Source: an uncultured Bacillota bacterium (GTDB lineage: Bacteria > Bacillota > DTU025 > MWDF01). Taken from it: DNA of 64,000 nt. Below the pieces are notes generated by a model. It saw only the letters and a list, made by a program, of their open reading frames with translations. It did not search any database and had not been told where the DNA came from. Within the stretch, counting starts at the first letter, position 1; each line of letters opens with the position of its first letter. The stretch lies in assembly GCA_963823655.1 (NCBI GenBank), contig CAWGMK010000006.1:256001-320000 (forward strand), read 5' to 3'. The translations under genes and the position numbers were made by a program. Shown one piece after another: positions 3 to 53,012 of this stretch.

Positions 3-1757
3 GGCATAGTTGTCACCTCCAGGAAAGCAGGCATGATCGACAAAGTCGACGCTCAGCAGATAACTATGGCTTATGAGGATGGCGGCTACGAAACCTATCC
101 TCTCCTTAAGTTCAAGCGCTCGAACCAGGGCACTTGCATCAACCAGAAGCCCGTAGTCAACAAGGGCGACCTGGTGGCTGCAGGAGAAGTCCTCGCGGAC
201 GGGCCTGCGACCGACATGGGTGAGATGGCCCTTGGCAGAAACGTTCTAATCGCATTCCTGCCTTGGGAGGGCTATAACTACGAGGACGCCATACTCTTAA
301 GCGAGAAGCTCGTAAAAGACGACGTCTTCACATCCATACACATTGAGGAGTACGAGTGCGAAGCCAGGCAGACGAAGCTGGGCGACGAAGAGATAACCCG
401 CGACATACCCAACCAGGGCGAGGAAGCCCTAAAAGACCTCGACGACGAAGGCATCATCAGAGTAGGCGCCGAAGTCAGGGCGGGTGACATCCTCGTTGGT
501 AAGGTAACCCCTAAGGGCGAAACCGAGCTGACGCCGGAGGAGAAGCTGCTAAGAGCCATATTCGGCGAGAAGGCAAGAGAAGTCAGGGATACGTCCCTGA
601 AAGTGCCCCACGGCGAGTCCGGCAAAGTAGTCTCCGTAGACGTATTCACCAGGGAAAGAGGAGACGAACTGGGCCACGGCGTGATAAAGCTTGTCAGAGT
701 CTATGTGGCGCAGAAGAGGAAGATATCGGTGGGCGACAAAATGGCAGGTCGCCACGGCAACAAGGGCGTCATAGCAAGGATACTCCCCGAGGAGGATATG
801 CCCTTCCTGCCGGACGGCACGCCTATTGAAATCGTGCTCAACCCGCTGGGCGTACCTTCGCGCATGAACATCGGCCAGGTCCTTGAGACGCATCTGGGCA
901 GGGCTGTCATTCCAAATAAGCTGAAGTACCCCGAGCGCGAGAAGACGTATGTCGCAACGCCGGTATTTGACGGCGCACATGAAGATGAAATCATGCAGAT
1001 GCTGGAAGATGCCGGCTGGAACCGCAACGGCAAGACAGTCTTGTATGACGGAAGAACGGGAGATTCCTTCGCAAGCCCCGTTACCGTAGGATATGCATAC
1101 TTCCTGAAACTGCTCCATCTTGTAGATGACAAGATCCATGCAAGGGCTACGGGACCCTACTCCCTGGTCACCCAGCAGCCGCTGGGAGGCAAGGCTCAGT
1201 TCGGCGGCCAGAGATTCGGCGAGATGGAAGTTTGGGCACTGGAAGCGTACGGGGCGGCAAACACACTGCAGGAGCTGCTGACCGTCAAATCGGACGATAT
1301 AGTGGGCAGGGTTAACACATACGCTGCCATAGTCAAGGGGGAGAACGTTCCGGGACCGGGCATACCGGAAGCATTCAAGGTGCTAATCAAGGAACTTCAG
1401 TCGCTCAGCCTTGACGTCAGGATATTGACCAACGAGGACAGGGAAATCAGCATCAAGGACCTTGAAGAGGATGCAAGCGATTCGGCAAGGGACCTGGGCT
1501 TCGATCTGGGTGCAAGGCCCTATAGGATAGGCGGGGACCTGCATATCGAAGAGCGCAGGCCTGAGAGGGAACGCAGGCGTGAAGAGGATGATAAAGCAGA
1601 AGACCTTCTTCCGCTGGCAGACTTCAGGATAGGCAAGGAGGACGTAATCGCAATTGAAAGCGATTTGGAGTCCGAGGCGCCTGAAGGGGATCCAATGCCG
1701 AGCCTGGACGACCTCGACATCGTCGAAGAAAGCACAGATGTCAAAGAGGAAGAGTAG
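3..1757 (+). CDS. rpoB: RNA polymerase beta subunit, 5'-truncated by the window
   Basis: Motifs [19 protein letters not shown] and [18 protein letters not shown]; frame is open from the window start; acidic C-terminal tail. Confidence 0.99.
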
Positions 1758-43939: not shown

Positions 43940-45024
43940 ATGGCAAAAAGGTTTCTATTATTAGTATTTCTTACTGCTTGCGATGTCTTTGCCTTTCAGC
44001 TCAACCGCATCCGCACGGGAGGGCTGGACGATTGGTTTCGAAGCGCTAGTTGATCACAGCTTGCTTCCGGGAGGAGGCATTGCCATAGCGACTGGCAACA
44101 AGGTCGTGTCTTTGGACAAGAATGGCAACAAGCAATGGGAATGGCAGGCGGCAGGGCCGATCAGGCAAATAACATCGGATGATACAGGCAATGTGTTCGC
44201 AGCGTTCGGGACTGCAGCTAGTTAAGCTGGACGGCAATGGCAGAATAGTGTGGTCTGCGGATACAATGCATGCGGTATATTCGTTAGAGTATGCTTCCGG
44301 AGGGATAGTCGCTGCAGGATATGAGTATGGTGTGCTGGCCTTCGATGAAAGCGGCGAAAATATCTGGGAGCATTACGCAAACGAGGAGTGCGACACCTGA
44401 CAACCCAAGATACCGGGGCCGGTCAGGCTCCTTCATTACTTGGGTACATACAGGCTGTCTGATATTGGGCGAGGTTTTTGAGGTCGGAAGCGCTGACAGG
44501 ACAGACGGAATTGACTATATAAATATTGTAGACATCAGGGATGGATGGACGGACCAGCAGTTCGAAGCCGTAAAGCCCTTCGAGATAAGGGCGGTTGAGG
44601 TGCTTGGCCCTGAGAGCATACTGGCGGCCGTCGACTATTCGGGGCTAGTCAGATGGAATACACAGGATATGTACGGAACCGACTGGGCATATAAGATGGC
44701 GCCGCCGAAATACATAAGCAGCGGCCCGACTGACAGGGCGCTGACTGTGGATTTCAATGGTTCGTTCAATTGTGCTGATGGATACTAAAAACGGTCTGCC
44801 GGTGATATCCGGCAAGCTGGCGTGAGCCTGCGATAGGAAAGCCCGTATGGAATGACGGATACTATTACATACCGATAGAAGGGGCCGTTATCGGTCTGGA
44901 CCTGAAATTGTCGAAATCATTCAGGATGGATGCAAAGGGTATCGAGGTAGCCGCCGAGATTGCGTTTGGCGAGGATGGCCTTTATGTAATGGACACGGAC
45001 ACACTGATTAAGATATCTCTATAA
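43940..45024 (+). CDS. Secreted PQQ-like beta-propeller protein with an in-frame CDT-UGA (possible Sec); several frameshifts
   Basis: GGAGG SD; repeats LDKNGNKQWEW, LDGNGRIVWS, FDESGENIWEH; fragments continue to ...LIKISL stop. Confidence 0.55.
44398..44446 (+). promoter_or_regulatory. Candidate bacterial SECIS element after the UGA
   Basis: Outer ACCCAAG/CTTGGGT stem, inner GGGGCC/GGCTCC stem, GGTCA loop starting 21 nt after the TGA. Confidence 0.5.
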
Positions 45025-45043
45025 AAGAACACGGGGGAAAAAC

Positions 45044-46102
45044 ATGAACTGCATCTTAGGAAAAAGGCGTTCTTTATTGATTTTGGCGGCGGTCATTGCA
45101 TTAGCTTTGGGCAGTGCTTCTGCCTTCGCGTCCGAACCTGTGAACCTTAGTACCAAGGACCGCTGACCAGATACCTGTGATAAGCGGGGCCTATGAGGAT
45201 GAAGCCGAGGCTAAGAAACTGCTGGCTTCCTATATGCCCGAACACAATGTCATAGGGAAACTGAGAAACAAGACCATCAAGGTACTTATTCGTGGATATG
45301 GTAGTTGACGACGTTACCAGGTGGTATGAGAAGGCGCTAGGGTATCCTTCCGTTACTTTGGAGGAGCTTAGCGTAGGGGAAGGCATTGGCCTGGGGGGGA
45401 AAGCCCCATGTACTACTGGTACGAATACTACATGTTCCCTGATACGAATGCATATGATGAGCAAGGCAAACTAATATGGCCGGGAGAGTTCATTACCAAG
45501 TCACTGGCCGAGAGCCGCCGCACATGGATGAGGGGCGCAATACTCCAGACAGCCAATTACGGCTGGTTCTTCAAGGACATGGAGAACTCAGTGACCGACT
45601 GCATGCTGGTATTACGGATGCGGGATTCGACTTCCAGAATATGACATATTCGAAGAAGACGGCAATAATTCTATCCTGGGAGACATATGAGCCTTTCAAG
45701 GAAGAGGATTACGTCGAGCCGGATGAAGACCCGGAAATGGCTGCATACATGAAGGACGTGGAGGAATTCGCGCAGATGCTTCTGGATGATCCTCCTACTC
45801 CCAAAATGCTTGATCTGCCGATAAATGATGCTATGCTTTTCGACCCCTTCACAACTGCAATGTATATGATGGAGGGCGATCCGATGTTTGCCTTCTTCTG
45901 GGATATCGAGCCGGAAGAAGCGGTAAAACTCTACTCGGCGGAGCTTATGCTTAAACCTGAAGAATATGAAGGCGGGTGGGTCTTCGTATTCTCCGGAAGG
46001 CTTCCGTATCCGATGCACGCCTTATATATCTACCCTAACGATATTCCCGGAGTGCCTTTCAAGACCTTGATTTTCATACGCAAAGAAGCAGTGACCAGAT
46101 AA
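45044..46102 (+). pseudogene. Secreted acidic hypothetical protein, fragmented by multiple frameshifts
   Basis: Signal peptide ending AFA|SE; successive overlapping ORF fragments to 46102. Confidence 0.5.
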
Positions 46103-47519
46103 CAGACGAAAAGACTATACCTGCCATGGGAGGTTCACCTTCCCATGGCAGGTTTTTTTTATTCGGCAAAGGCAGGTCCTTTAGGGATTCGGCGACCTGC
46201 TCTTCTGAGTATTCCAGGTCGGGAAGCTGGCCTTTTATATATTTCTCATATGCTGTCAGGTCGAAATGCCCGTGGCCGGATAGGCAGAACACTATGGTCT
46301 TGCTGATTCCTTCCTTCTTGCAGATTTCGGCCTGCCGTATGGCCTCCGCTATGGCGTGCGAGGATTCTGGCGCAGGCACTATGCATTCGGTCCTGGAGAA
46401 AAGCTCAGCCGCCTTGAACGTCTCGCTCTGAGGGATATTAGTGGCCTCGATGAGCCCGTCGTGGTAAAGCTTCGCGATTATCGGAGATGTCCCATGGAAG
46501 CGCAGGCCTCCTGCGTGGATTGAAGATGGCACGAAATTGTGCCCCAGCGTATACATCTTCACAACGGGTGCCATTCCGGCCGTATCGCCGTAATCGTACG
46601 CGTACTTGCCTTTGCACAAGCTAGGGCAAGCGGCGGGTTCGACGGCTATAAGCCTAAGCTTTCCCGAGGATGCCATGCTGTCTTTCAAGAAGGGGAGCGC
46701 AATGCCGCCGAAATTGCTCCCGCCTCCGCAGCAGCCGATAATGATGTCCGGCGTGTCTCCCGCGATTTCTAGCTGCCTTCTCGTCTCAAGGCCTATTACG
46801 CTCTGGTGGAGCAGAACATGGTTTAGTACGCTTCCTAGTGCATAGTTTGCGTCCGGCATTCCAAGGGCCGCCTCAACCGCCTCGCTGATTGCCATGCCCA
46901 AGCTGCCAGGAGAATCAGGGAACTTCTTGAGAATCGCCCTTCCTGCCTCGGTTGTGTCGGACGGGCTGGGCGTAACTTCCGCGCCCCACAGGTTCATCAA
47001 TATCCTTCGATAGGGCTTCTGCTCATAGCTTGTCCTGACCATGTACACTTTGCACCCGAGGCCCATCATATTGCACGCAAGAGCCAGCGAACAGCCCCAT
47101 TGGCCGGCGCCTGTCTCAGTTGTCAGGGTCTTAATGCCGGCGAGCTTGTTGTAATATGCCTGAGGAATGGCTGTATTGGGCTTGTGGCTTCCCGTCGGGC
47201 TTACGCTCTCGTTTTTGAAGTAGATCTTGGCCGGCGTATCAAGGGCTTTTTCGAGCCTTCTGGCCCTGACGAGCGGGGTGGGCCTCCATATGGACAGAGC
47301 CTCTCTCACCTCTTCGGGAATCTCGATCCAGCGCTCAAGGCTAGCCTCCTGCCTGATTAGCTCCATGGGGAAAATCGAAAGAAGGTCCTCAGGCACAAGC
47401 GGTTTCAGGGTTCGCGGGTTCAGGGGAGGATCCAAGGGTTGTGGCATGTCTGCCTGTACGTTATACCAAGCTTTGGGTATGTCCTCTTTGTTAAGCAGTA
47501 TCCTGTCGTCTTTTTGCAT
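46074..47519 (-). CDS. trpB2: Tryptophan synthase beta, type 2 (TrpB2); true 3' end probably near 46160
   Basis: PTGSHKPNTA, TETGAGQWG, YALGSVLNHV, PAPESSHA; no trpA nearby. Confidence 0.93.
   Translation of the reverse strand: MQKDDRILLNKEDIPKAWYNVQADMPQPLDPPLNPRTLKPLVPEDLLSIFPMELIRQEASLERWIEIPEEVREALSIWRPTPLVRARRLEKALDTPAKIYFKNESVSPTGSHKPNTAIPQAYYNKLAGIKTLTTETGAGQWGCSLALACNMMGLGCKVYMVRTSYEQKPYRRILMNLWGAEVTPSPSDTTEAGRAILKKFPDSPGSLGMAISEAVEAALGMPDANYALGSVLNHVLLHQSVIGLETRRQLEIAGDTPDIIIGCCGGGSNFGGIALPFLKDSMASSGKLRLIAVEPAACPSLCKGKYAYDYGDTAGMAPVVKMYTLGHNFVPSSIHAGGLRFHGTSPIIAKLYHDGLIEATNIPQSETFKAAELFSRTECIVPAPESSHAIAEAIRQAEICKKEGISKTIVFCLSGHGHFDLTAYEKYIKGQLPDLEYSEEQVAESLKDLPLPNKKNLPWEGEPPMAGIVFSSVIWSLLLCV
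46119..46160. terminator. Intrinsic terminator between convergent genes
   Basis: ACCTGCCATGGGA/TCCCATGGCAGGT stem followed by a T-tract. Confidence 0.85.
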
Positions 47520-47542
47520 TCCATTCACCCCTTATCATTTCT

Positions 47543-48793
47543 TTAGTTGCTGTAACTGCTGATCAAAAGCCCTTCTATGGGTTTTGGATGGAAACACGTC
47601 GTTTTTTCAGGCATTAGCCTTCCGGACAAGGCCGCCTCGAACACCTGTCGCGCCGTCGGAGGCACAGTAAAGAATGCAATCTGGCTATAGCCGCTTTCAA
47701 CAGCCCTGATGCAAGCTTCCATGGAAGGTGTGAAGTTGACCCTTGCCCTGACTATGTTGCCTTGGCCTTCGTCTTTCAGGAAGGGAAGGCGCCCGAACTC
47801 AAGGTGCCTTGCGAGCAAGTCCTCATGCAGGACCTCAGAGGAACACTTTCCACGAGGCAGCCTGAAAACCAGGCTGATAAAGCCCGTTTCCGAGGAATAG
47901 GCCCCAAATACTGCGCTGCCGGGAGAAGCACTCTTCAGGCAGGCTCTGAGGGATTCTGCATTGCTGTGCCGCTTAATAATGAAATCCTCTTGGATCAGCC
48001 CCGGAAGTTTAAGCAACAAGGAAGGGGGGATGCCCTTCAAATGCCTGTGGAACGGCCTTACCTGAATCCCCACGGAATCCATAGGGAAAAGGCAGGAGAG
48101 AACCCCGGTGCCTGCTCTTTGCCCATTCTGGACGGCCTCTTTTGCAGCTTCAAACCTGTGGTGGCCGTCAGCTATCACGACTGTCTTCTCGGCCATGATG
48201 GTTTTCAGTTGCGCTATTGCGCCATCTTCTATCCTGCATAGCGAATGAGTATTTCCATCAGGATCAGAAAACTCGATCACAATTCTGCAGGACGAACAGG
48301 ATAGTAAACTGAGTACTTTCGAATCCCTGTCCTCGAAAAGGCCGAAGACGGCACTCAAGTCAGAGTTGGTGCTTGCTGAAAGGTTGGCCCACTGACGCAC
48401 GGCATCGGGGAAGGTCCGCTCGTGCGGCAGCACTTTTCCCTCCCCATAGGCCGAGGCTTCGACTAGGCAGTAGAAACCGATCCTGCTGCGCATCTGCCCT
48501 TCTTCATCTGCATACGAGAGCGTATATCGATACATTGCCCGAGCTTTATCCGGCTTCAGAATGCCATCCTTGAGCATTTCATCCAGCAGCCTTCGAGAGG
48601 ACAGGAAATCCGGCTTGCCTTCCTTGTCCTTCATCGGCCTTAAAACCCTAACGATGTTATTGCGCGAACCGGCCGCAAGTTTGGCACGCATTTCGCTGTT
48701 AACTTCGCTAAGGCAAGGGGATACAAGCTTGCTTATGTCTCCGGCCCTTTTGGCGTCGTAGAATATGCCGTTGAACATCGATATGTTGGCCAA
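47543..48793 (-). CDS. DUF1015-family protein (ParB/Srx-like core)
   Basis: VLPHERT, IADGHHR, MPEKTTCFHPKPIEGL; AGGAGG SD with TTG start. Confidence 0.85.
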   Translation of the reverse strand: MANISMFNGIFYDAKRAGDISKLVSPCLSEVNSEMRAKLAAGSRNNIVRVLRPMKDKEGKPDFLSSRRLLDEMLKDGILKPDKARAMYRYTLSYADEEGQMRSRIGFYCLVEASAYGEGKVLPHERTFPDAVRQWANLSASTNSDLSAVFGLFEDRDSKVLSLLSCSSCRIVIEFSDPDGNTHSLCRIEDGAIAQLKTIMAEKTVVIADGHHRFEAAKEAVQNGQRAGTGVLSCLFPMDSVGIQVRPFHRHLKGIPPSLLLKLPGLIQEDFIIKRHSNAESLRACLKSASPGSAVFGAYSSETGFISLVFRLPRGKCSSEVLHEDLLARHLEFGRLPFLKDEGQGNIVRARVNFTPSMEACIRAVESGYSQIAFFTVPPTARQVFEAALSGRLMPEKTTCFHPKPIEGLLISSYSN

Positions 48794-48812
48794 GAGGGTG
48801 CCTCCTTATATG

Positions 48813-48851
48813 CAAAATAAAAGAAGCCCGGAGTACAAGACCCGGGCTTCC
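48813..48851 (-). terminator. Attenuator terminator upstream of DUF1015-trpB2
   Basis: Minus strand reads GAAGCCCGG-GTCTTGTACT-CCGGGCTTC-TTTTATTTT. Confidence 0.8.
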
Positions 48852-48884
48852 TGATTTTCCGAGCGTTCTACGTCCTGTTCGTGC

Positions 48885-48995
48885 TTATTCGCCTTTAAAG
48901 CTGCGCCAGCCCCAAGCGAAAGCCGAATGGACACGACCTGCGTTTCCAGTAAAAGCCGATGAGTATGAAGTTGGCTTCAAAATGCAGGTCATCAT
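48885..48995 (-). CDS. 36-aa Trp leader peptide (TrpL-like)
   Basis: AAGGA SD; MMTCILKPTSYSSAFTGNAGRVHSAFAWGWRSFKGE, with the stop about 35 nt before the terminator. Confidence 0.65.
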   Translation of the reverse strand: MMTCILKPTSYSSAFTGNAGRVHSAFAWGWRSFKGE

Positions 48996-49109
48996 TTTCA
49001 TCCTTAATGCAGAATAAACTAATAATCATACGAGAGGTTTGCTTTGTCAAGCGGAATCAGGCAAAATGTATATATCAGAGCAGGTGATATTCAGCCTCAA
49101 TACTGCTTA

Positions 49110-49138
49110 TTGACACGGCAACCCCAAACATCTAAAAT
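49110..49138 (+). promoter_or_regulatory. SigA promoter of rplM-rpsI
   Basis: TTGACA, 17-nt spacer, TAAAAT. Confidence 0.8.
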
Positions 49139-49245
49139 CTTAATGTGAGTCACTTAGCCGGCTCGAGTATTTTTATGGTCGAAGCGCGGAGTTTTCCCGG
49201 ACACCTCGCTTGGACCCTGTAGGCAAAACTACTGGGAGGGACAAG

Positions 49246-49683
49246 ATGTACCGCTCTTACATGGCAAAGCCTGAAGAAATGGAGCGCAAGTGGTTTGTTG
49301 TAGACGCCGAAGGCAAGACCTTGGGTCGTCTGGCAAGCCAGGTTGCCTCGATACTTAGGGGTAAGCACAAGCCGATTTTCACACCGCACGTAGACTGCGG
49401 GGACCACGTAATAGTAATCAATGCCGAGAAGGTCGTCCTTACGGGCAACAAGCTAAAGGACAAGATCTATTACAGGCATACGATGTATCCCGGAGGCCTC
49501 AGGGCGATCCCGTACGGGAAGCTGCTGGAGACACAGCCTGAAAGGGCAGTCGAAAGGGCAATCAAGGGAATGATTCCTCACACAAGGCTCGGACACAGGA
49601 TCGGCATGAAGCTCAAGGTTTACAAAGGTCCTGAGCATCCGCATGCAGCCCAGAAGCCCGAACCGCTCGATATTAAGGCTTAG
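49246..49683 (+). CDS. rplM: 50S ribosomal protein L13
   Basis: LGRLASQVA and [14 protein letters not shown]. Confidence 0.99.
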
Positions 49684-49709
49684 GCCAGGCAAGGAAGGAG
49701 ATCGAACCT

Positions 49710-50102
49710 ATGGCATTGGAACAGTACAGGGGAACAGGCAGAAGGAAATGCTCTGTGGCCAGGGTCAGACTCGTGCCTGGCTCGGGCAAGGTAACCATCA
49801 ACGGCAGGGAGATGGCGGAATATCTTGGCCGTCAGGTACTCGAACTGGTCGTTATGGCACCGCTCAAGCTCACAAGCAGCGATGGCAAGTATGATGTCCT
49901 CGTCAACGTCCACGGAGGCGGCACAACCGGCCAGGCCGGCGCCGTTCGCCACGGAATAGCAAGGGCTCTTCTGCAGGTTGATGGCGAGCTCAGGCCCGCA
50001 CTCAAGAAGGCAGGGTTCCTGACAAGAGACGACAGGATGAAGGAGCGCAGGAAGTACGGCCTCAAGAAGGCAAGAAAGGCGCCCCAGTTCTCCAAGAGGT
50101 AA
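49710..50102 (+). CDS. rpsI: 30S ribosomal protein S9
   Basis: GTGRRK and [10 protein letters not shown]. Confidence 0.99.
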
Positions 50103-50120
50103 TCTTACCTCGCTTGTTAG

Positions 50121-50168
50121 AAAACAAAAAACGACCCCGGGCTGTTTTGCCCGGGGTCTTCTAATTTT
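50121..50168. terminator. Bidirectional terminator
   Basis: GACCCCGGGC/GCCCGGGGTC stem flanked by A- and T-rich runs. Confidence 0.8.
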
Positions 50169-50210
50169 CGGCCAATTGGCCGTTTGAGCAAGGCAAACCT
50201 TAAGGTACGG

Positions 50211-50942
50211 CTAGTCTTTCAGGCCTAGCGCCTTGGCTATGAGGCTGTTTGATGAGGCCCTTCCCTCGACACCTGGCAATAGCTTCAAGACGACATGCGC
50301 AGGCCTTGCCGAAAGCACATATACTACATCGGAAAGGTAGGACGCCTCGTCGATGTCGTGAGTTGTCATCAGCATAGTAAGGCCCAGTTCGGCCTTCACT
50401 TCCAGCAGCCATTGCTGCATCGATTTCCTCGTTAGCGCATCCAGCGCGCCGAAGGGCTCGTCTAAAAGCAGGAAGCGCCTCTTCTGCATAACGGTTCTAA
50501 GCAGTGCGACTCTCTGCTTCATGCCCCCGGAAAGATCACTGGGGTAGTAGTTCTCGAATCCCTGAAGGCCGAAGATAGGCATGAGGCGCAGCGCCTCCTC
50601 CTTTGCAGCATCCAGATCCCCTCCTGAAAGCTCAGCTGCCAGCACTGCATTGCCAAGCGCAGTCCGCCAGGGGAGAAGCAAGTCCTTCTGCGGCATGTAA
50701 GAGGGAGGCGAGGACAGCTCGAACCGGCCGGATCTCGGCTTGAGCCTTCCGGTAAATATTGAAAAGAGGGTGCTCTTCCCGCAGCCGGAGGGGCCCAGAA
50801 TGCTTACGAAGCTTCCTTCCGGGACCTCAAGGCTTATTGCGTCAAGTACCGGGACATGGCCCTGTTTTCGGCTCTTATAGGCGAAGCTGAGCGCGTCCGC
50901 TTTCAGCATTGGAGTAGATCCGGTACTTTCGGTCATTGTCAT
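50211..50942 (-). CDS. ABC transporter ATPase (ThiZ-like)
   Basis: GPSGCGKST, YMPQKDLLLPW, LLDEPFGALD. Confidence 0.9.
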   Translation of the reverse strand: MTMTESTGSTPMLKADALSFAYKSRKQGHVPVLDAISLEVPEGSFVSILGPSGCGKSTLFSIFTGRLKPRSGRFELSSPPSYMPQKDLLLPWRTALGNAVLAAELSGGDLDAAKEEALRLMPIFGLQGFENYYPSDLSGGMKQRVALLRTVMQKRRFLLLDEPFGALDALTRKSMQQWLLEVKAELGLTMLMTTHDIDEASYLSDVVYVLSARPAHVVLKLLPGVEGRASSNSLIAKALGLKD

Positions 50943-50951
50943 GGCAGCAGC

Positions 50952-51905
50952 TCATTGGTAGAAGAACTTGGAGCTGTCCTGCCCGGCTTTTACTAGGCCA
51001 TGCGATCCCATCCACTCGTAGAGCCCCTTCCAGACAGAGGCCTTCTGTAGGCCCCAGGATGAGGCATCCTCAATGTATCTTGGCGAAAGCCATTCCTGGC
51101 TCTTCGTGGCAAGCTCTTTGTCTATCTCGGGGGAGCGCTTTATGAGAATCCTGGCGGCCTCCGCGGGGTTGTTTGCAGCATATGTATAACCTTTGGATGT
51201 CGCTGCCATGAAGGCCTTTGCCAACCCGGATTCCTTTTCTATAAACCTGGCCGATGAGATTATTATCGGTGCGTAGTAATCAGGTATTGCCGGCACGTCC
51301 CTCAGCATGATTGCGGAGATGTCCATGCCCCTCAGCTTAGCCTCGATGCCCTGCCAGCCCATATATATCCAGACGATGTCGACATCCCTGCCCAGTATCG
51401 CAAGCAGGTCCGCAGTTCCGATCACTAGCTCCTTGAGCCTGCTCGGGTCTCCGCCGTCCGACTTGACTACATCACCTATCATTGCCTGCTCAAGAGGCAG
51501 CCCCCAGCTGGCGTAGGTCTTGCCCTGGAAATCCCGCGGCCTTGTTATGTTCGACTTCTTCAAACTGGCGTAAGCAGTCGTATTATGCTGAATGACAGCG
51601 GCTACGGAAACAATAGGGAGCCCTTCGGCCATTGCGGCCGTGGCCCATTCCTGTGAGCTTATGCCGAAATCAACCTTGCCTGCGGCAACAAGCTGCTCTA
51701 GGGCAAGCCCCTGGCTCTGCTCCATAATTTCGACTTCGATGCCGGCCTCCTTGTAGAAGCCCTTCTCCAGGGCCACGAACAATCCGGTGTGATTGGTGTT
51801 CGGGACCCAGTCGAGCAAAATGCTTACTTTAGGCGCCGCTACGGCCTGCGCCGTGATAAGCGCGAAAACCGCCAGCAGGGCTGCCGACAATATTGCCCTT
51901 TTCAT
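50952..51905 (-). CDS. NMT1/THI5-like substrate-binding protein (ThiY-like); last codons possibly frameshifted
   Basis: LDWVPNTNHTG; signal peptide; alternate frame gives a TNELLP end. Confidence 0.88.
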   Translation of the reverse strand: MKRAILSAALLAVFALITAQAVAAPKVSILLDWVPNTNHTGLFVALEKGFYKEAGIEVEIMEQSQGLALEQLVAAGKVDFGISSQEWATAAMAEGLPIVSVAAVIQHNTTAYASLKKSNITRPRDFQGKTYASWGLPLEQAMIGDVVKSDGGDPSRLKELVIGTADLLAILGRDVDIVWIYMGWQGIEAKLRGMDISAIMLRDVPAIPDYYAPIIISSARFIEKESGLAKAFMAATSKGYTYAANNPAEAARILIKRSPEIDKELATKSQEWLSPRYIEDASSWGLQKASVWKGLYEWMGSHGLVKAGQDSSKFFYQ

Positions 51906-52681
51906 TTCTCTACCTCCCAGATATCGCTTTCATGCTGGTAGTACCAAGGCGAAAGCCTTCTTGATACGTAATTGACAAGGCTGAACAGGCCCATGCTGAG
52001 GATCGTTATTATCACAAGCACAGCGAATACCCTGTCGGTCCTGAAGGAGTGGGATGATCTCGTAAGATATACTCCAAGGCCCTTTTGCGATCCCATCCAT
52101 TCGGAAACCACTGTGGCGATGATTGCATATGTGGCCGACACCCGAATGCCGGTGAAGATATGCGGCAGCGCCGCAGGCCAGCGGAGCTTCCAGAACAGCT
52201 TTGAAGGCTTCGCATCCATGCCTTTTGCCATTTCCACAAGCTCGGAATCCACTGAGGAAAGGCCGTCGACCACACCAACGCTGATGGGGAAGAAGCATGC
52301 CAGCACCACCAGGAGCACTTTGGGAAGGGTGCCGAAACCGAACCAAAGTATCAGAAGGGGCGCCACGACAATCGTCGGCAGGCTCTGGGATGCAACGAGC
52401 GCAGGATATAGCGTGCTTCTAAGAAAACCGGAGGAGAAGACCATATAGCCCAAAGCAAGGCCTGCTACAAGAGAGGCCGCCATGCCAAGTGCCGCCGCTC
52501 CCAGCGTTGCCAGAGTATGCTGCATAAGAAGCGGGGCCGTTTCGTAGAGCGCCGCGAAGACGGCCGATGGTGCGGGGAAAATCCACGGCTCTATCGCGAA
52601 GGCCCTCACAACAGCCTCGACTGCCAGTATTAAGAGCAAGGCCGCCAACATCGGCCTTACCTTAGAGCGAAGCTTATCCAC
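51902..52681 (-). CDS. ABC permease (ThiX-like)
   Basis: APLLILWFGFG, EW.GS.KGLG; GTG start overlapping the upstream stop. Confidence 0.88.
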   Translation of the reverse strand: MDKLRSKVRPMLAALLLILAVEAVVRAFAIEPWIFPAPSAVFAALYETAPLLMQHTLATLGAAALGMAASLVAGLALGYMVFSSGFLRSTLYPALVASQSLPTIVVAPLLILWFGFGTLPKVLLVVLACFFPISVGVVDGLSSVDSELVEMAKGMDAKPSKLFWKLRWPAALPHIFTGIRVSATYAIIATVVSEWMGSQKGLGVYLTRSSHSFRTDRVFAVLVIITILSMGLFSLVNYVSRRLSPWYYQHESDIWEVEK

Positions 52682-52970
52682 GGTGCTTGGACACCTTCTC
52701 ATCCATCGTGGAGGGTATGTCGGACTCAGCCAACTTGATATAGGTAATGACAGACCCTATGCCTGCATCCTTGACGGCCCTGTGGGCCTTGTAGGCCGTT
52801 GCCCAAAGGAGATCAAGTTCCCCCTCCATTGTCGTTTCGAAAGGCCCGACTTCATACTTCACGCCGGAGCTTTTTATCACTTCTATTGCCTTGTCTACTG
52901 CTTTGTAAACATCCTCTTTCGCCCCTGCGTTAAGGGGCAGGACTTGTATAGCCAGGCTACCATTACGCAT
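52674..52970 (-). CDS. Thiamine-binding protein (YkoF/MTH1187 family)
   Basis: SGVKYEVGPFETTMEG. Confidence 0.85.
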   Translation of the reverse strand: MRNGSLAIQVLPLNAGAKEDVYKAVDKAIEVIKSSGVKYEVGPFETTMEGELDLLWATAYKAHRAVKDAGIGSVITYIKLAESDIPSTMDEKVSKHRG

Positions 52971-52982
52971 ACAGACACCTCC

Positions 52983-53012
52983 AAAAAAACGCAGGCCCGG
53001 AGGCCTGCGCAA
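52983..53012 (-). terminator. Expression-platform terminator of the TPP riboswitch
   Basis: CGCAGGCC-TCCG-GGCCTGCG followed by T7 on the minus strand. Confidence 0.85.

Follow-up and report, generated by a model that had tools for sequence, protein, structure and literature searches.

A DUF1015 gene and a stand-alone trpB2 behind a tryptophan-codon leader: a possible phosphoserine-dependent indole-salvage operon in an uncultured Bacillota bacterium

From where does a tryptophan synthase of the TrpB2 type obtain its phosphoserine, and what does it do in the cell? TrpB2 is widespread, being encoded in 117 of 301 genomes sampled from the phylum of the bacterium studied here, yet both the source of its O-phospho-L-serine (OPS) and its physiological role remain questions. 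A locus that bears on them lies in a stretch of 64,000 nucleotides (called the window throughout; contig CAWGMK010000006.1, positions 256,001 to 320,000, assembly GCA_963823655.1) from an uncultured Bacillota bacterium, where a gene of the DUF1015 family directly precedes a gene for TrpB2, behind a leader that contains tryptophan codons. We regard it as moderately probable that the two genes constitute a tryptophan-responsive operon for the salvage of indole, in which DUF1015 would make OPS from L-serine and TrpB2 would join this OPS with indole. The locus occupies positions 49050-46074 of the minus strand as one compact unit of a promoter-like site, a leader open reading frame (ORF), a terminator and the two genes:

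49050-49022, minus strand: putative sigma-70-like promoter (TTGACA, 17 nt, GATTAT), 10 of 12 hexamer positions matching, both hexamer regions kept in G125, a genome of the same genus
49001-48885, minus strand: leader ORF of 38 codons plus stop, with two Trp codons in an A-W-G-W-R-S block at 48920-48903
48923-48883, minus strand: conserved leader hairpin "1:2", formed between the Trp-codon block and the final codons of the leader together with its stop codon
48852-48812, minus strand: intrinsic terminator formed by a 12-bp hairpin (7 G-C pairs) and a T-run, immediately preceding the ribosome-binding site of DUF1015
48807-48801, minus strand: strong ribosome-binding site of DUF1015, AAGGAGG, directly 3' of the terminator
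48793-47543, minus strand: DUF1015/SerBK-family gene (416 aa, TTG start, PF06245 match), encoding a putative ATP- or ADP-dependent L-serine kinase
47519-46074, minus strand: gene for TrpB2, a stand-alone tryptophan synthase beta-like enzyme dependent on pyridoxal 5'-phosphate (PLP), assigned by NF009057, TIGR01415 and matches to PDB chains
46119-46153, listed on the plus strand: terminator-like 15-bp hairpin with A- and T-runs, between convergent genes and within the 3' extension of TrpB2

A preliminary description of this DNA, made from the sequence without database searches, had placed a DUF1015 protein with an IADGHHR motif about 25 nt upstream of a stand-alone trpB2. The motif is found at residues 207-213 (I-A-D-G-H-H-R), and the protein matches PF06245 with an E-value of 7.9e-48 and 163.5 bits (Pfam gathering cut-off 25.8), a low score when compared with the 300-400 bits of typical members of the phylum. 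No NCBIfam model matched it, and the genome of the window contains a single copy of the family. TrpB2 scores well above the cut-offs of NF009057 (723.6 bits, cut-off 366) and TIGR01415 (650.9 bits, cut-off 518.85) and falls below that of the classical trpB model TIGR00263 (165 bits, cut-off 392.45). It aligns end to end with solved TrpB2 chains (6hul_B, E 4e-134; 4qys_B, E 1e-120; 6hte_B; E-values up to 2.5e-120), and its H-K PLP motif falls in invariant alignment columns. The identities of both genes are as first described, but the distance between them is slightly smaller: the ORF of TrpB2 is listed as 47528-46074, the ATG at 47519 is the start common to its relatives, and counted from this shared start the gap is 23 nt. 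At its other end, TrpB2 carries in this assembly a 3' extension of about 29 codons beyond the point where the genes of four relatives stop. This extension crosses the hairpin at 46119-46153, a putative operon terminator, and overlaps the end of a convergent ORF (45476-46102); it may be due to a lost stop codon or to an assembly error. In exceeding both TrpB2 cut-offs and aligning with solved chains over its whole length, the protein resembles the TrpB2 enzymes of Saccharolobus solfataricus and Thermotoga maritima. It differs from them in the 3' extension, possibly an assembly artefact, and a preference for OPS is assumed for it by analogy. Also, its gene is not part of a trp operon, in contrast to 5 of 80 sampled TrpB2 loci, which belong to trpD-trpC-TrpB2-trpF clusters (three recognised by Pfam, two by BLAST clustering only).

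What DUF1015 might do is suggested by its predicted structure. The AlphaFold model (predicted local distance difference test 91.8, predicted template modelling score 0.90) was compared with the PDB by Foldseek, and the nine best matches comprise only SerK, its Pyrococcus homologue and SbnI (E 7.6e-8 to 1.1e-4, best probability 1.00). VIA-align gives Z-scores of 13.5-15.2 for SerK (224-233 aligned residues out of about 240) and of 11.6-13.2 for SbnI, the next match being sulfiredoxin with a Z-score of 5.6; the alignments to SerK and SbnI cover 203-233 residues of chains that are 232-254 residues long. The predicted fold, which is of the two-domain ParB/Srx type, therefore clearly matches only the free serine kinases SerK and SbnI, the two proteins that the preliminary description had named for comparison. 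When PDB sequences are searched with a DUF1015 profile, chains of the SerK family rank first (E 0.002-0.04), and in the alignments to 1vk1 and 5x0b the DGHHR motif and the C-terminal P-K-[ST]-T motif correspond in colinear order; a search of PDB sequences with the single DUF1015 protein returned only spurious low-complexity matches to designer pentatricopeptide repeat proteins. Judged from the aligned ranges only (SerK chain 16..240 on model 106..416) and not from a residue-level superposition, the catalytic Glu30 of SerK would fall near the invariant H124-E125 of DUF1015. The likeness to SerK and SbnI thus comprises the fold (Z 11.6-15.2) and both motifs, and the differences are that the DUF1015 protein is about 175 residues longer and only 9-16% identical to them.

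Free serine kinases of the ParB/Srx fold offer an analogy for the arrangement proposed here, since they supply OPS to an enzyme that consumes it. SbnA of the staphyloferrin B pathway in Staphylococcus uses OPS. SbnI of the same pathway reportedly makes OPS as a free serine kinase, in work attributed to Verstraete and dated 2018. SerK of Thermococcus kodakarensis is a kinase of free serine and feeds cysteine synthesis (PMC5120207). In those systems the product is a siderophore precursor or cysteine; here, the consumer would be TrpB2 and the product tryptophan.

The DUF1015 family itself has been named SerBK and proposed to be a serine kinase by Price et al. (PLoS Genet 2026, PMC13759103; bioRxiv 2024.10.14.618325). 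According to the text of that paper, CBO1128, a DUF1015 protein of Clostridium botulinum, rescues an Escherichia coli serB mutant, BT1151 of Bacteroides thetaiotaomicron is needed for growth with L-serine as nitrogen source, SbnI is the top structural match, ATP docks confidently, and many DUF1015 genes sit together with serA and serC. The authors also state that a kinase running in reverse is thermodynamically hard to explain. The expectation that the present locus would provide an uncharacterised family with a function is therefore overtaken, as this role, a probable serine kinase able to stand in for SerB, has already been put forward for the family and examined genetically (PMC13759103). 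The DUF1015 protein of the window shares with the SerBK proteins (CDIF630erm_01132 of C. difficile, CBO1128 and BT1151) the Pfam family, the SerK/SbnI-like predicted fold and the invariant residues. In contrast to their genes, which sit with serA/serC and replace SerB in serine synthesis or use, it has neither serA nor serC beside it, adjoins TrpB2 behind a Trp leader, has a low Pfam score and lacks the N-terminal P-P-Y-D motif. With the kinase-like nature of the family already published, the reading given here is only partly new. What is added is a clean two-gene operon with a Trp leader in a genome apparently devoid of a native TrpA, a related genome whose paralogues are specialised, and strong co-occurrence throughout the phylum. 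The words TrpB or tryptophan synthase have no occurrence in the text of either version of the SerBK paper, supplementary tables aside; our literature search found no paper that links TrpB2 to a serine kinase, and the papers on DUF1015 and those on TrpB2 and phosphoserine do not overlap.

In the pathway that we propose, DUF1015 would use a nucleotide to convert L-serine to OPS, and TrpB2 would convert OPS and indole to L-tryptophan and phosphate. Characterised TrpB2 enzymes depend on or prefer OPS (Busch et al. 2014, as cited in PMC11917138). The kinase step would be thermodynamically favourable and would be pulled further by an irreversible TrpB2 step. The cost would amount to one ATP per tryptophan; in return, the leaving group would be better, and that could drive the capture of indole. 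Both genes would be expressed from one promoter, and by means of the Trp-codon leader and the intrinsic terminator their output would depend on the supply of charged tRNA-Trp. The SerBK authors, as far as the text of their paper goes, could not explain how a kinase works as substitute for a phosphatase (PMC13759103). The operon gives the forward kinase reaction a sensible context, and if that direction is the useful one in tryptophan synthesis, the thermodynamic puzzle would thereby be removed.

Does the organism possess another way to form tryptophan? The assembly (designated G000; 13 contigs, 2.3 Mb, 97% complete, 3.8% contamination) contains matches to trpA, trpB1 and indole-3-glycerol phosphate synthase (IGPS), all of them within G000:C6:1-7000 and each broken over several frames. 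They are part of an 11-kb block at the end of a contig (G000:C6:1-11000) with 71-79% G+C, as opposed to 45-58% in whole contigs, and this block is probably a chimeric join or contamination. No trpA was found at E<=1e-30 in G125 and G040, which belong to the same genus, or in G162, which belongs to another family of the order. Because the trp matches lie in a foreign-looking block and the relatives are without trpA, TrpB2 is most probably the sole native tryptophan-forming enzyme of this organism, which would have no native TrpA, TrpB1 or IGPS. The earlier statement that trpB2 stands alone without trpA probably applies to the native genome, but not to the assembly, which does hold a trpA match. 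The foreign-looking block carries a frame-broken trp operon (trpE/G-like, trpD/C, trpB and trpA) and would mislead automated calls of the tryptophan pathway for this genome. Two genes of the tryptophanase/tyrosine phenol-lyase family are present at G000:C6:84275-85654 and G000:C10:356781-358124 (NF009709, 670 and 519 bits), and the organism may both release and recapture indole.

The pairing of the two genes is conserved within the order. Among its 21 genomes, five encode DUF1015, namely four from a single genus (G000, G125, G311 and G312) and G162, a member of another family. In all five, TrpB2 follows directly downstream of one DUF1015 copy, with both on the same strand. Identities between G000 and its congeners are 85-86% for TrpB2 and 49-51% for DUF1015, and the DUF1015 of G162, in the other family, is 29-36% identical to those of the genus. 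A further genome of the genus, G040, which is 98% complete, has neither DUF1015 nor TrpB2, pointing to a joint loss of both genes. The case of G162 is the most informative, for its genome encodes a second DUF1015 in a serC-serA-DUF1015 operon, apart from the copy linked to TrpB2. Because G162 also keeps this operon, which represents the published context of SerBK, its TrpB2-linked DUF1015 seems to be an extra, dedicated copy, and this suggests a tryptophan-related job and provides the strongest single argument for such a role.

Leaders could be read in G000, G125 and G162, the contigs of G311 and G312 stopping 58 nt before DUF1015. Each of the three has a small ORF with Trp codons towards its end (2, 2 and 5 in G000, G125 and G162, respectively), a GC-rich hairpin followed by a T-run, and the ribosome-binding site of DUF1015, and because the leader recurs in 3 of 3 readable DUF1015-TrpB2 operons, it is not a product of chance. 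Our data thus support that DUF1015 and TrpB2 form one conserved unit under a Trp-codon leader. In the window, the Trp codons are located at 48914-48912 and 48908-48906. Between G000 and G125 the promoter hexamers, the Trp block, the end of the leader ORF and the terminator are kept and the remainder varies. The A-W-G-W-R-S block is identical in 18 of 18 nucleotides and synonymous sites in the adjacent gene are saturated (proportion of synonymous differences, pS, 0.74), and the block therefore appears to be constrained at the RNA level. RNAalifold, applied to G000 and G125, predicts the hairpin 1:2 with 14 pairs, two of which are changed on both sides, a thin covariation given that there are two sequences only; the hairpin is present in the minimum free energy (MFE) structure of the single sequence too (z = -4.35). 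The stem of the terminator is kept in G125, and G162 has a different GC-rich hairpin with a T-run at the same place. As a matter of anatomy, then, the Trp-type attenuator reported in the preliminary description is real: a promoter-like site, a leader ORF with Trp codons and a terminator, kept in 3 of 3 readable leaders. Control by T-box or TRAP is the usual form of Trp regulation in the class of this bacterium. A scan of 45000-50500 with Rfam assigned the leader to no family at E<=1, T-box and Trp_leader included, these two models describing other lineages, and yielded only two weak, irrelevant matches near 50113-50185. Like attenuators of the trpL type, the leader has a small ORF whose Trp codons are close to the end, a hairpin that spans these codons and, ahead of the first gene, an intrinsic terminator. 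It differs from them in that no match to Trp_leader and no clear 2:3 antiterminator were found. The operon is most probably switched on when tryptophan is scarce.

The explanation that competes best with ours concerns the direction of this control. The leader might induce the operon when tryptophan is plentiful, either in a tnaC-like manner or with the Trp block acting as antiterminator, and the pair would then recapture or detoxify indole during the breakdown of tryptophan. Several observations would fit. The best partner of the 5' arm of the terminator is the Trp-codon block itself (-11.9 kcal/mol), the block is invariant between G000 and G125 despite the saturation of synonymous sites elsewhere, the genome carries two tryptophanase-family genes, and a classical 2:3 antiterminator was not found when leaders were folded, alternative pairings being weak or not conserved. 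On the other hand, several Trp codons (2, 2, 5) ahead of an intrinsic terminator typify attenuators that sense starvation, the conserved hairpin joins the Trp block to the final part of the leader ORF and so resembles the trpL region 1:2, G-rich Trp codons pair with C-rich terminator arms by chance, and control of the tnaC type uses Rho rather than an intrinsic terminator. We consider induction by high tryptophan unlikely, though deserving of attention.

A second explanation takes the published function at its word: DUF1015 would act as SerBK does in serine synthesis, with net conversion of OPS to serine, and would supply a TrpB2 that uses serine. It can draw on the rescue of the E. coli serB mutant by CBO1128 and on the many DUF1015 genes located with serA/serC (PMC13759103). 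Within our sample of standard DUF1015 neighbourhoods (20 phylum regions fetched, 74 of 77 neighbour ORFs scanned with Pfam, the omitted three stemming from L140/L109), a class-V aminotransferase and a long phosphoglycerate dehydrogenase (PGDH), in a serC-serA arrangement, are encoded upstream of DUF1015 in 3 of 19 phylum loci (G202, G001 and the second copy of G162), and the genome of the window has a single DUF1015 for whatever task. This explanation leaves unaccounted for why G162, which has the serC-serA-DUF1015 operon, still keeps a second copy beside TrpB2. Moreover, the genome of the window has no PGDH over cut-off and no serA or serC beside DUF1015, a Trp-codon leader would be odd for a housekeeping gene of serine formation, OPS is preferred by those TrpB2 enzymes that have been characterised (Busch 2014 as cited in PMC11917138), and thermodynamics disfavour the reverse kinase reaction, a point also made by the SerBK authors (PMC13759103). 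A role as supplier of serine is hence rather improbable.

A third explanation is that the fast-evolving DUF1015 of this genus has changed its job and now phosphorylates another substrate or has become a regulatory or non-catalytic partner to TrpB2, much as TrpA activates TrpB1. The near relatives of the DUF1015 in the window, eight clusters with >=49% identity, make up a compact clade, beyond which identity drops to 32%. In a tree of 73 DUF1015 proteins, made by a quick method and with P0002-P0008 called "TrpB2-linked" by similarity only, the clade of the genus sits on a very long stem (1.72 changes per site, Shimodaira-Hasegawa-like approximate likelihood ratio support, SH-aLRT, of 100), and it is joined by the TrpB2-linked copies of G162 and of L140, a metagenome contig, with weak support (70) and on long branches. 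Within the genus, DUF1015 has diverged much more than TrpB2 (49-51% versus 85-86% identity). Among the three closer copies of the genus, the ratio of nonsynonymous to synonymous substitution (dN/dS) is 0.14-0.16 for DUF1015, about 5 times that of TrpB2 (0.03). Furthermore, a near-universal N-terminal P-P-Y-D motif is replaced by P-C-[LI]-S in this genus (residues 22-31, window 48703-48732). In contrast to these signs of change, all invariant columns of the family are kept (19 of 19 in an alignment of 22 sequences that includes serA-linked copies, 20 of 20 in a second alignment), with Y88, H124-E125-x-T127, the DGHHR motif in I-A-D-G-H-H-R 207-213, R250 and P395-x-K-x-T-x-F-x-P-K. The dN/dS values show that DUF1015, like TrpB2, is under purifying selection, DUF1015 being less tightly constrained. 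Also, pairing with TrpB2 is independent of the loss of the motif, since the TrpB2-linked copies of G162 and L140 retain P-Y-D. A change of job therefore seems quite improbable to us. That the adjacency of DUF1015 and TrpB2 is a chance neighbourhood with no functional link, as one might propose because most genes of either kind lie elsewhere, is barely credible in view of the same strand, gaps of 21-27 nt, a single leader and terminator before both genes, a layout that persists in two families although their DUF1015 proteins share just 29-36% identity, the joint loss in G040 and an independent case in reverse order (L140).

How far, then, does the proposed salvage operon hold beyond the order? 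In the phylum sample of 301 genomes, in which TrpB2 was called at E<=1e-100, DUF1015 is present in 154, TrpB2 in 117 and both in 100. DUF1015 occurs in 100 of 117 genomes with TrpB2 and in 54 of 184 without it, and the association is seen irrespective of trpA: with trpA, DUF1015 is found in 77 of 87 genomes with TrpB2 and in 33 of 89 without; lacking trpA, in 23 of 30 and 21 of 95, respectively. Among 14 control genomes, DUF1015 is encoded in B. thetaiotaomicron, T. maritima and M. acetivorans, and TrpB2 in the same three and in S. acidocaldarius. Co-occurrence is thus much stronger than adjacency, but it is no more than suggestive, since related genomes are not independent. As to adjacency, the 5 of 5 cases in the order are accompanied by L140, an AT-rich metagenome contig on which the order is reversed, TrpB2 being followed on the same strand by DUF1015 after a gap of 21 nt. 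The arrangement may therefore have arisen more than once, yet it is the exception for both genes, and the quick tree fits one origin or several.

Against the proposed serine kinase-TrpB2 operon a number of points have to be weighed. The survey of DUF1015-trpB2 adjacency that the preliminary description called for shows that the pair is not unique to this genome but also that it is not general. Both genes are adjacent in 3 of the 100 phylum genomes that have them (G000, G125 and G162), as judged from the listed places, where ten weak DUF1015 matches were unlisted, G125, G263 and G021 were recovered and second copies in G123 and G149 were left out. When the flanks of the best 80 TrpB2 loci of a GTDB-wide search, which come from many phyla, were searched with the DUF1015 profile, two contained DUF1015, L032, which is G312's own contig and hence of the window's genus, and L109; outside the genus this leaves 1 of 79 loci, with DUF1015 3 kb off and on the opposite strand. 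Similarly, TrpB2 lies directly upstream of DUF1015 in 1 of the 80 best metagenome DUF1015 loci. A profile search for longer proteins found no fusion of DUF1015 with TrpB2, which is weak evidence, its one 799-aa protein matching PF06245 only, and the counts of co-occurrence ignore shared ancestry. In the leader, no convincing antiterminator was found: when folding was repeated with a masking ribosome, no regulated antiterminator appeared and the terminator stayed in every masked MFE structure, and the pairing of the Trp-codon block with the terminator arm would, taken literally, imply termination on ribosome stalling. The loss of P-P-Y-D and the long stem branch mean that the substrate of the genus clade could have changed. 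Also, the phenotype published for SerBK, replacement of the phosphatase SerB, corresponds to the opposite net direction (PMC13759103), and the genome may make OPS by other means, for it encodes seven 2-hydroxyacid dehydrogenase paralogues, of which none exceeds the cut-off for PGDH, as well as a single class-V aminotransferase sharing 33% identity with the operonic SerC of G162. In favour of a module for tryptophan salvage, as first suggested for this DNA, speak the conserved unit, the Trp leader, the SerK/SbnI fold with its motifs, the want of a native TrpA and the paralogues of G162; what does not stand is adjacency as a general trait.

A wider reading would make DUF1015/SerBK the general physiological source of OPS for TrpB2 in bacteria and archaea, and thus permit a widespread, ATP-driven, high-affinity scavenging of indole without TrpA. 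We put this forward tentatively, as a possibility with the odds somewhat against it. If true, it would explain both the preference of TrpB2 for phosphoserine and the kinase fold of a "phosphatase substitute", and the Trp-attenuated operon of the window would be the clearest natural statement of a link between SerBK and TrpB2. A bolder version, modelled on the way in which TrpA hands indole to TrpB1, is that DUF1015 and TrpB2 might form a complex that hands over phosphoserine. The hypothesis of a kinase-fed TrpB2 is sharp and can be checked cheaply, as serine, ATP and indole should give tryptophan. If it is true, tryptophan auxotrophy and the cross-feeding of indole in anaerobic communities could be predicted better. 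The gain would be moderate, since the functions of the components have already been published and adjacency is confined to few lineages.

Other neighbours of the two families were also considered. A common neighbour family of TrpB2 was sought by BLAST clustering of 274 neighbour ORFs from the 80 loci, and no dominant family emerged, though small or divergent partners may exist; the Pfam scan covered the first 150 of these ORFs, from loci L032-L076. Near standard DUF1015 genes, a gene with a PHP domain is divergently adjacent in five sampled phylum loci (L193, L198, L206, L207 and L211, from G279, G191, G223, G036 and G180), a neighbour that goes unmentioned in the text of the SerBK paper (PMC13759103).

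The operon of the window is flanked upstream by divergent rplM and rpsI and downstream by a convergent gene without known family. The region of the latter (45150-46102, plus strand) corresponds in G312 to one ORF of 394 aa without Pfam family, which the window matches in two frames with a switch near 45611, indicating a frameshift or a pseudogene. At 43983-44788 (plus strand), ORFs of 80, 73 and 155 aa overlap one another in three separate frames, each without a Pfam match; the G312 counterpart encodes a fragment of a PQQ_2 beta-propeller, and the version in the window may be a frameshifted gene. On the other side of the operon, 50211-53012 (minus strand) encodes an ATP-binding cassette ATPase, an NMT1/THI5-like binding protein, a permease and a Thiamine_BP (YkoF-like) protein, likely a cluster for the uptake of a thiamine precursor, and genes for NMT1, permease and Thiamine_BP also adjoin TrpB2 in two loci of Syntrophomonadaceae (L035 and L048).

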